Part shown: piece by piece, positions 20,840 to 22,453 of the stretch | Layout: each line of letters opens with the position of its first letter | Position numbering within the stretch: the first letter of the stretch is position 1 | Source: a virus | Virus genome (UHGV): UHGV-0040495 | Direction: 5' to 3' (one strand) | Length of the DNA: 26,910 nucleotides | Notes under the pieces: model-generated | Databases searched by the model: none | What the model was told of the DNA's origin: nothing | The model's input: the letters and a program-made list of their open reading frames with translations, nothing else | Program-made: the position numbers and the translations under genes

Positions 20840-22453
20840 TTAAGCCTGGTTGTTAAAACTGGTGACCTGACGCTTGCCAGACTGGAACGGCGCCCAGGTG
20901 ACGGCGGGATCGCCTTCAAAGGTGCTGATCTGGCGACCGGTTGCATCGGCGCGCTTAATCTCGCGCAGCATACCGGGACCAACTGACAGGCTGGCCGCCT
21001 TCTGCGCATCAGCGTAGATATGCTTTTCGGCAGTGCTCAGCAGTTGAGAATCAGCGATGGCAGAGAGATCGACGGCTTTGTAGTCCGGAGAATGCTCCTG
21101 CAGTTGAATCATCAGACGGCGGCGATACGCCATCGGTTTTTCACCGGACAGCGGGATCGGGGCGCGTTTGCCAAAGCTGGAGAAGACGCTATCGGCTTTC
21201 ACCTGCGCTTCTGCAACTTCGTTGCGCTCTTCGTCGCTCAGTTCGGTAGGAATGCGGGAGCGAAGCTCAGCAATTTCCTGGAGGATTTGAGAGTCGGCTT
21301 TTTCTTTTGCCATTTTCTCAGCCTCTTCGGCATCCGCCTTTTCTTTGGCTTCAGCATCAGCTTTTTCCTTCGCGGCTTTCTCTTCCGCGTCGGCTTTAGC
21401 TTTCGCCTCTTCCGCTTCTTTGCCTTCTGCGTCAGCCTTTTCTTTCTTGGCGGCCTCTTCGGCGTCAGCCTTGGCTTTCGCTTCCTTCTCTTCGTCGGCC
21501 TTAGCCAAACGCGCATCGATCGCCTTATTAATCAGCGCTACGATTTTTTCCTCGTCCATCTTTTCAGCCTCTTCAGGAATGGAATCAGATTTAACACCGG
21601 TAGGGGCAAGGAGCTTGTCCCACACGCCCTGTTCACAAATTGCAACGTGGTCGAGCAGCTCGGGGGATGGCTCCACCAGTAGAGGCTGACCGTCGACAAT
21701 GATTGATTGAGCAACCTCTGAGAACTTCACAGTTGGCGAGGTGCTTAATTGCCTTGTTGCCATAATTTCAGCAGCTTCGGCGTCGTACACACGCGCAACG
21801 GCCCACACTTCGCCCTTATCGGCAACCCAGGCATTTGTCAGGGTGCCAATAACGCGCTTTGAGAACTCGTCGCTATCAAGTGTTCTTTTTTCGGGGTGAA
21901 GCCAGATAAGTGGTACGCCAGCTACCCGCTGGAGAAATTCAGGGGTGAGATAGTCGTCCGGGTTACGGAACGTCATCTCCTGATCTGCAGATCGCCAGGT
22001 AACCCCTGTTCCGGTCACCCGGATGGCGAACATCCACATGTTGTAAAAATATTGCGGGCTGCTGAGCGTTCCGTCAGCGATGAGCGCGGCCACGTCGGTT
22101 TCGTTGAGCGCCTGCTGCGCCAGCATTTCAGCGAATGGCTGATGAAGCGGCTTTGGCAGATCGTCAATATGGAACCATCCGGCGGCCAGCGATTCGTCGT
22201 TTATCTTCGCTTCGAATTGCTCCGGCACGTCGGCGCGGTAGGTCAGGTAGTCACCATGTACGCTGTGCGGCGTCAGCGGGCCATCGTACTGATAGCCCGT
22301 TTCCTCCAGCACCTCGCGCCGTGCGGCGTCTATGGCTAACTCTCCCGGCTCTATCTTCCCGCCCGGCTGGCACCATGTGCCATCATCCGAGCGCTGGATC
22401 AGGAAGACGAACTTCCCCTGACGGAACATTATCCCGCTGCCAAAAATAGCCAC
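20840..22453 (-). CDS. Fusion protein: N-terminal Nudix hydrolase domain plus head scaffold/assembly-like protein with K/A/E/D-rich coiled-coil linker
   Basis: 537 aa continuous ORF. GTG start at 22453 with AGGAG 9 nt upstream, 13 nt after the stop of the preceding gene. Residues ~31-53 ([23 protein letters not shown]) match every fixed position of the Nudix box Gx5Ex7REUxEExGU. The central region is an (A/K/E/D) low-complexity repeat. Lies in the scaffold/protease position between the head-morphogenesis and capsid genes. Confidence 0.65.
21290..21520 (-). repeat. Degenerate tandem coding repeat (Lys/Ala/Glu/Asp-rich) in the scaffold-like gene
   Basis: Repeating GCC/TTC/CTT-rich units on the plus strand encode [53 protein letters not shown]. 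Confidence 0.6.

Follow-up and report, generated by a model that had tools for sequence, protein, structure and literature searches.

A Nudix domain fused to a prohead protease-scaffold protein of a temperate Klebsiella/E. coli phage: a candidate enzyme for delivery with the virion

Phage Nudix domains fused to head proteins were catalogued by Iyer, Burroughs, Anantharaman and Aravind in 2022 (Viruses 14:1977, PMC9503650), who gave them one sentence and a figure, named them 'T4-like nudE' and hypothesized that they are packaged in the head and injected to counter signals derived from nicotinamide adenine dinucleotide (NAD+) or ADP-ribose (ADPr). The general framework, in which effector domains are fused to MuF or portal proteins, had been set out earlier (Iyer et al. 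2017, PMC5512222). Here we describe a fusion of this kind in the virus genome UHGV-0040495, analyzed as a window of 26,910 nucleotides: a minus-strand gene whose product comprises a Nudix domain, a predicted prohead maturation protease of the DUF2213 type and a scaffold. The late-operon context of the gene and the hypothesis that applies to it are those of the 2022 catalog. The arrangement and the idea of a packaged and injected enzyme have been known since then as a computational prediction, and an earlier sequence-only reading of this DNA, to which the fusion was not known as a described arrangement, was mistaken on that point; the arrangement is likewise annotated in gp26 of phage BcepB1A. 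What is added here is incremental: a predicted assemblin fold for the DUF2213 domain, a probable nested scaffold start, the frequency of the fusion, a PBECR1 domain as alternative cargo and an analysis of selection.

Outside its own family, the phage Nudix domains closest to that of UHGV-0040495 are found at the portal C-terminus of phages Bcep781, Bcep1, Bcep43 and BcepNY3 (37-42% identity), and the N-terminal Nudix domain of BcepB1A gp26 is 48% identical. BcepB1A gp26 is annotated as "head maturation protease, COG3566" and has a "scaffold protein", gp25, nested in frame. Like the query gene, it encodes an N-terminal Nudix domain and a DUF2213-type protease and has the portal and MuF-like genes ahead of it and the capsid gene behind it. 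The two carriers differ, however, in that gp26 belongs to phrog 3778 and the query to phrog 6216, and BLASTP gave no alignment between gp26 and the query outside the Nudix domain. As the carriers cannot be aligned and fall into different PHROGs, either conservation is far stronger in the Nudix domain than in its carrier, or the domain has passed from one carrier to another. In the Bcep781 group the same Nudix clade is again attached covalently to a head-interior protein, but there the carrier is the portal, the Nudix domain is C-terminal and the protease (gp14) is the product of a separate gene. One profile, phrog_30637 (1119 positions), matches the portal part of Bcep781 gp17 with its positions 2-265 and, with positions 739-1024, the protease part of BcepB1A gp26, which implies that some phages have giant portal-to-protease fusions.

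The UHGV-0040495 gene is an open reading frame (ORF) at positions 20840-22453 of the minus strand that encodes 537 residues from a GTG start without an internal stop. The sequence-only reading had claimed that an entire Nudix domain, perfect in its Nudix box, is joined in frame to the protein in the protease or scaffold slot and that the fusion is translated from a GTG with AGGAG 9 nucleotides upstream, and all of this was borne out. Positions 22079-22453 encode residues 1-125, no stop separates the Nudix domain from the remainder, and direct reading of the sequence places AGGAG at the expected distance, with the fused form as the translated form. The AGGAG overlaps the stop codon of the preceding MuF-like gene, and Met9, the sole other early start, would still include the whole Nudix fold. 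A check that the reading had also proposed showed the ORF uninterrupted in independent assemblies: it is present in the isolated Klebsiella phages vB_Kpn_Chronis, RothC and RothD (98.7-99.3% nucleotide identity), the intact fusion was found in 49 complete E. coli genomes and at 80 IMG/VR loci, and hundreds of Klebsiella protein entries carry it uninterrupted. A frameshift, mis-assembly or miscalled start that joined a separate Nudix gene to a head gene is excluded for practical purposes, since independent assemblies carry the uninterrupted ORF and the same architecture recurs in 101 independent 50%-identity clusters. Nothing was found in favor of such an artifact, its only foothold being a GTG rather than an ATG start.

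The Nudix assignment is far beyond chance because residues 9-112 matched Pfam NUDIX (PF00293) at E=1.4e-16, scoring 61.2 bits where the cutoff is 21.1. An AlphaFold model of the full protein was built on a 77-sequence alignment and had a mean predicted local distance difference test score (pLDDT) of 86.7; in its Nudix part the pLDDT was >90 over residues 10-110. When the PDB was searched with Foldseek, the top 50 listed of 278 matches (E<=0.001) were all Nudix enzymes. The residues expected of an active enzyme are retained. Among 77 distant relatives (about 40% identical to the query), G32, E38, R46, E47, E50 and E51 are kept in 74-76 and E35 in 71, with R46, E47, E50 and E51, which serve metal binding and catalysis, kept in 75; conservation of the Nudix-box residues is 92-99% overall. 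The same residues are kept in 72-73 of 73 distinct closer variants. Median pairwise ratios of nonsynonymous to synonymous substitution (dN/dS), taken between each of the 73 closer variants and the query in pairs that are not independent of one another, were 0.066 for the Nudix domain, 0.090 for the protease, 0.075 for the coiled coil and 0.057 for the C-terminal domain, values that indicate purifying selection; these comparisons gave no sign of relaxed selection on the Nudix domain. Judged from sequence, an inactive or decaying Nudix domain is unlikely.

Members of the Nudix superfamily hydrolyze nucleoside-diphosphate-X substrates with Mg2+ or Mn2+. A search of PDB sequences with the full protein gave generic Nudix matches only (the best being NUDT18 at E=2.2e-5, with Ap4A hydrolase and similar enzymes at about 1e-5), while its DUF2213 and scaffold parts drew no match. 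The classical downstream markers of Nudix subfamilies, Pro for ADPRases and Tyr for ApnA hydrolases, were considered but given no weight. The structural neighbors of the Nudix domain were likewise a generic mix of Ap4A/Ap6A hydrolases, NUDX1, NudC, RppH and Dcp2, and an NCBIfam scan of the 537-residue protein gave no equivalog at cutoff.

The sequence-only reading expected a DUF2213-type carrier, and Pfam DUF2213 (PF09979; COG3566) does match, with a score of 25.3 bits (cutoff 22) over residues 159-276. In PHROGs, the part outside the Nudix domain falls into the "head maturation protease" families phrog_530 and phrog_2229. The AlphaFold model consists of the Nudix domain (residues 1-112), a beta-rich domain (about 134-273), a disordered break (295-300) and a C-terminal part made of long helices, a low-confidence stretch rich in Lys, Ala, Glu and Asp (332-362) and a confident C-terminal domain. 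Since the Foldseek search with the full-length model was swamped by Nudix matches, residues 120-295 were modeled separately, and the predicted structure shows the assemblin fold of T4 gp21, HK97 gp4 and the herpesvirus proteases. Within this domain all 77 relatives keep the Ser237-Thr238-Ser239-Pro240 motif, Glu261 and Asp268 unchanged. The fold match and the conservation (Table 1) point to His186, Ser239 and His269 as a candidate catalytic triad with the spacing His-(53)-Ser-(30)-His, an order and spacing that we take to resemble those of assemblin-type triads. The carrier had been read as a scaffold or assembly protein. A head-assembly protein it is, but it is more than a scaffold and is best described as a maturation protease, of predicted assemblin fold, followed by a scaffold.

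The scaffold part is laid out as a coiled coil (residues 300-400) and a C-terminal domain (401-537). The Lys/Ala/Glu/Asp-rich center that had been noticed from the sequence is real; it occupies about residues 300-400 and is helical or of low confidence in the AlphaFold model. An ATG codon for Met299 lies at 21557-21559, at the disordered break of the model, with GAGG upstream. Both elements are kept in all 17 distinct upstream variants, drawn from related viral loci that are 55-99% identical, and the Glu codon that forms GAGG is always GAG, whereas the neighboring Glu codons use GAA. Position 299, which falls in a variable linker, holds Met in 68 of the 77 relatives and Val in 8 of them, and both residues can be encoded by start codons. 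This codon usage and conservation argue that a scaffold of 239 residues is probably translated from the internal Shine-Dalgarno sequence and Met299, with the same C-terminus as the full-length protein; gp25 within gp26 of BcepB1A is an annotated precedent. The source is probably a temperate Klebsiella/E. coli phage and the gene its head maturation gene, probably with two products.

PHROGs lists the fusion as a phage protein family in its own right, since phrog_6216 (positions 3-545 of 545, E=9.7e-246) covers the 537-residue protein over its whole length. The frequency of the Nudix domain was surveyed by searching 1.84 billion cluster representatives (50% identity) with residues 120-537 only, which gave 1981 matches at E<=1e-3, and by scanning the N-termini of the best 150 of these (38-72% identity, plus one 95%-identical fragment) with a local hidden Markov model search. 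A homologous N-terminal Nudix domain was present in 101 of the best 150 representatives, 44 had no N-terminal extension and five had another extension. Hence, the Nudix fusion is the majority state of the nearest clade. The prospect, raised in the sequence-only reading, that the fusion might prove to be the common form of its family with a known role holds in its first half; the role is not experimentally known. Isolated phages with the fusion include Klebsiella, Yersinia, Pantoea and Shewanella phages, and the Nudix-less form, matching phrog_6216 positions 114-545, is found in Escherichia phage Rac-SA53 and an Actinobacillus phage. The Nudix-less relatives (the 44 representatives and Rac-SA53) indicate that the domain is accessory and dispensable for head building.

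These relatives bear on the proposal that the Nudix domain has neither catalytic activity nor a substrate and serves as a structural or regulatory pro-domain, for example one that holds the protease inactive until assembly or aids oligomerization. Such a role would suit a domain that lies directly N-terminal to the protease, is joined to it by a linker modeled as ordered and can be assigned to no substrate subfamily. However, a structural role would not require the strict retention of R46, E47, E50 and E51 in distant and close relatives alike, the protein is made without the domain in nearly a third of the representatives surveyed and in Rac-SA53, and in the Bcep781 group it is a portal, not a protease, that carries this domain. 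We regard a pro-domain as quite improbable.

Database labels vary within this family. RefSeq calls the fusion "NUDIX hydrolase" only, the homolog of Yersinia phage vB_YenM_29.18 (locus 6001-7632) is labeled 'glycosyl transferase', as in Yersinia phages, and the Nudix-less homolog of Rac-SA53 (locus 5007-6299) is labeled 'TolA protein' with the note 'nudix'. The TolA assignment was rejected because the NCBIfam match is low-complexity noise from the Lys/Ala/Glu/Asp-rich region. The current labels mask a role as head maturation protease and scaffold. Two long relatives, P0237 (1567 residues) and P0130 (1015 residues), have the Nudix-DUF2213 unit at their C-terminal end, preceded by ribonucleotide reductase fragments and a DUF5710 domain, respectively; these could be real polyvalent proteins or gene-calling fusions.

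Where the Nudix domain acts is best approached through its carriers. The query, Bcep781-group and BcepB1A domains have in common a characteristic tail, (N)DE(H)..W(F)...LP.PLH, which follows the Nudix fold, and the Bcep781-group and BcepB1A domains cross-match the first 113 positions of phrog_6216. The recurrence of one Nudix clade on three different capsid-interior proteins is, in our view, the strongest sequence-level argument for a place inside the head. The main alternative places the activity earlier, in the producing cell or the procapsid, where the domain would act late on a nucleotide-derived molecule, such as a defense signal or toxin raised when the host senses portal, protease or capsid proteins, and would then be degraded or discarded at maturation. 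The gene is expressed from the late operon, its product is fused to proteins that concentrate at assembly sites, and prohead proteases and scaffolds do not normally stay in the head. Moreover, an analogous option, the countering of immunity directed against the packaging apparatus, is raised by Iyer et al. for head-associated ADP-ribosyltransferases, and according to a review a type I cyclic oligonucleotide-based antiphage signaling system (CBASS) is triggered by a phage prohead protease. Yet a diffusible enzyme would serve the cytoplasm equally well, whereas this domain recurs on three capsid-interior proteins, and the portal C-terminus faces the capsid interior, which argues for a location inside the shell. 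The late-acting alternative also fits poorly with P0191, a DUF2213 relative and one of the five representatives with another extension, in which a Pfam scan of 10 selected proteins showed a PBECR1 nuclease domain in place of the N-terminal Nudix domain, PBECR being a domain class earlier predicted to be head-packaged (PMC5512222) and to act after injection. On balance, we consider late action in the producing cell or the procapsid unlikely.

In a broader formulation, the N-terminal position of these proteins would be a general cargo site: whichever domain stands there, Nudix in most members and PBECR1 in some, would be brought into the procapsid by the common scaffold C-terminus, freed by the protease, kept in the head and ejected into the next cell, and the Nudix enzyme would destroy an immune signal derived from NAD+/ADP-ribose, or else an RNA cap, in the opening minutes of infection. 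We put this forward only tentatively. Near the N-termini of P0181, P0187, P0189 and P0191, which have non-Nudix extensions, we noted a short motif, approximately A(E/D)FNE(S/A)DHPR..DG.F, that occurs twice in P0181; a targeting or cleavage signal is one possibility.

The reading that we prefer is packaging of the Nudix domain, its retention in the head, ejection and hydrolysis of a nucleoside-diphosphate-X substrate early in the next host, for which we give a rough probability of 0.55. Since the full-length and 239-residue products would share the scaffold C-terminus, the full-length protein should co-assemble with the nested scaffold in the procapsid, carrying protease and Nudix cargo into the shell. 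At maturation the protease would digest the scaffold and itself, and the compact Nudix domain would stay in the head and enter the next host with the DNA. There it would hydrolyze a nucleoside-diphosphate-X, most plausibly a NAD+/ADP-ribose-derived or dinucleoside-polyphosphate-type molecule. We infer packaging, cleavage from the protease, retention, ejection and the substrate, and a virion-delivered anti-defense enzyme is consistent with all of the tests run.

Several considerations weigh against this scheme. Proteases of the HK97 type are self-digesting and the resulting fragments exit the shell, and the Nudix domain could thus be degraded or lost instead of being kept. In the linker between the Nudix and protease domains, modeled as ordered with a pLDDT of 91-95, no site of cleavage could be identified, and a portal-fused Nudix domain, as in Bcep781, would stay in the head unless it were cleaved off. 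The comparison by hhalign of the family alignment with the T4 gp21 sequence gave a probability of 0.07, that is, no signal; the protease assignment therefore rests on the fold and the invariant residues. A substrate call from the neighbors of the Nudix domain was rejected because the structural and sequence neighbors are too mixed, and in the searchable literature we found no virion proteomics, enzymology or anti-defense assays of any head-fused Nudix domain.

The gene occupies the prohead protease/scaffold slot, with the portal and MuF-like genes on one side and the major capsid gene on the other, in a minus-strand order of terS, terL, portal, MuF-like gene, Nudix-protease gene, a gene for a 286-residue protein and major capsid protein (Table 1). 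The MuF-like protein (276 residues) covers only positions 81-347 of the 624 in the phrog_324 profile; given its short length and partial match, it is without the effector domains that many MuF proteins carry at the C-terminus. The extra enzyme of UHGV-0040495 thus rides on the protease and not on the MuF-like protein. The 286-residue protein had no Pfam or NCBIfam match, and its residues 165-240 (approximately) match segments of large 'virion structural protein' and tail-fiber families; it may be an immunoglobulin-like head decoration or auxiliary capsid protein. The major capsid protein is a divergent branch of the Major_capside family and scored below threshold against the Pfam model (PF09950; 18.5 bits against a cutoff of 26.8).

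Table 1 Positions of the Nudix-protease gene, its parts and signals, and the neighboring genes in the UHGV-0040495 window
Feature	Positions	Strand	Basis
Full-length gene: Nudix, then prohead protease (DUF2213), then scaffold	20840-22453	minus	ORF list; phrog_6216 end to end
GTG start codon of full-length product	22451-22453	minus	ORF list and sequence read
Shine-Dalgarno AGGAG, 9-nucleotide spacer to GTG	22463-22467	minus	Sequence read directly
Nudix domain, residues 9-112	22118-22429	minus	Pfam PF00293, AlphaFold, Foldseek, dN/dS
Nudix box, residues 32-54	22292-22360	minus	Every fixed position of Gx5Ex7REUxEExGU matched
Prohead maturation protease domain, residues 113-290 (DUF2213 core 159-276)	21584-22117	minus	Pfam, fold
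His186, candidate catalytic histidine	21896-21898	minus	Invariant in 77/77 and 73/73; candidate role from fold match
Ser239, in invariant S-T-S-P motif, candidate catalytic serine	21737-21739	minus	77/77 and 73/73; candidate role
His269, candidate third triad member	21647-21649	minus	76/77 and 73/73; candidate role
Internal Shine-Dalgarno GAGG, 8 nucleotides upstream of Met299 codon	21568-21571	minus	Sequence; 17/17 upstream variants
Probable nested scaffold, in frame, Met299-Ala537, 239 residues: coiled-coil region and C-terminal globular domain	20840-21559	minus	
terS	26055-26795	minus	
terL	24720-26051	minus	
Portal, Phage_portal_3/DUF1073 type	23293-24708	minus	
MuF/SPP1 gp7-like head morphogenesis protein	22466-23296	minus	phrog_324, E=5.5e-30
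286-residue protein of unknown function	19964-20824	minus	phrog_6268
Major capsid protein	18919-19950	minus	phrog_6671 end to end

Packaging and ejection of the Nudix domain would mean that common Klebsiella and E. coli prophages bring along a ready enzyme, active ahead of all phage gene expression, a timing that would matter for defense systems based on NAD+ depletion or ADP-ribose signals. The prohead protease-scaffold would then be a cargo-loading device, possibly useful for engineering protein-delivering phages. Should the N-terminal position prove to be a general cargo site, this would be the first experimentally tractable protease-tethered, virion-delivered anti-defense enzyme in ordinary temperate enterobacterial phages. 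The locus brings no new concept; it adds a convenient test system for a published prediction, in the form of the cultivable vB_Kpn_Chronis, the prophages of the 49 E. coli genomes and the Nudix-less Rac-SA53.

The name 'T4-like nudE' in the 2022 catalog invites comparison with T4 NudE (e.1), which is a standalone phage Nudix enzyme of 151 residues and not fused as the query is. The T4 genome record describes nudE as a nudix hydrolase active on flavin adenine dinucleotide (FAD), diadenosine polyphosphates, ADP-ribose and NADH, and Iyer et al. (2022, PMC9503650) give its substrates as ADPr, FAD and diadenosine triphosphate. The query domain links only weakly to this enzyme. BLASTP aligned the two over 34 residues, around the Nudix box only. 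T4 NudE matches phrog_1185 at E=4.7e-74, whereas the query reached E=3e-7 with that family over residues 21-56 only and had phrog_1198 as its best Nudix PHROG. Beyond the Nudix box, BLASTP and PHROGs gave no specific relationship to T4 NudE.

In T4, capsid targeting depends on a short N-terminal peptide that is removed by gp21. The comparison with T4 capsid targeting made in the sequence-only reading stands as an analogy only; the query has no cleavable N-terminal targeting peptide, because its Nudix fold starts close to residue 4, and the covalent link to the protease-scaffold would serve for targeting instead. The concept of a head-loaded enzyme delivered with the DNA is the same in the T4 internal proteins (IPI-III and Alt) and in the polyvalent and MuF-fused effectors (PMC5512222). 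Polyvalent proteins, however, are large, multi-domain and usually MuF-based, whereas the MuF-like protein of UHGV-0040495 carries no effector domain.

The closest parallels to the predicted two-product design are the C/Nu3 pair of phage lambda and the I/Z pair of Mu, where one reading frame gives two products with a common C-terminal scaffold that brings the protease into the procapsid. The parallel has its limits: lambda C is a ClpP/S49-type protease and that of the query a predicted assemblin-fold protease, and the nested product of the query is deduced from its start signals. Lambda C and Mu I are without an extra enzyme domain, whereas the query protein places a Nudix domain ahead of its protease.

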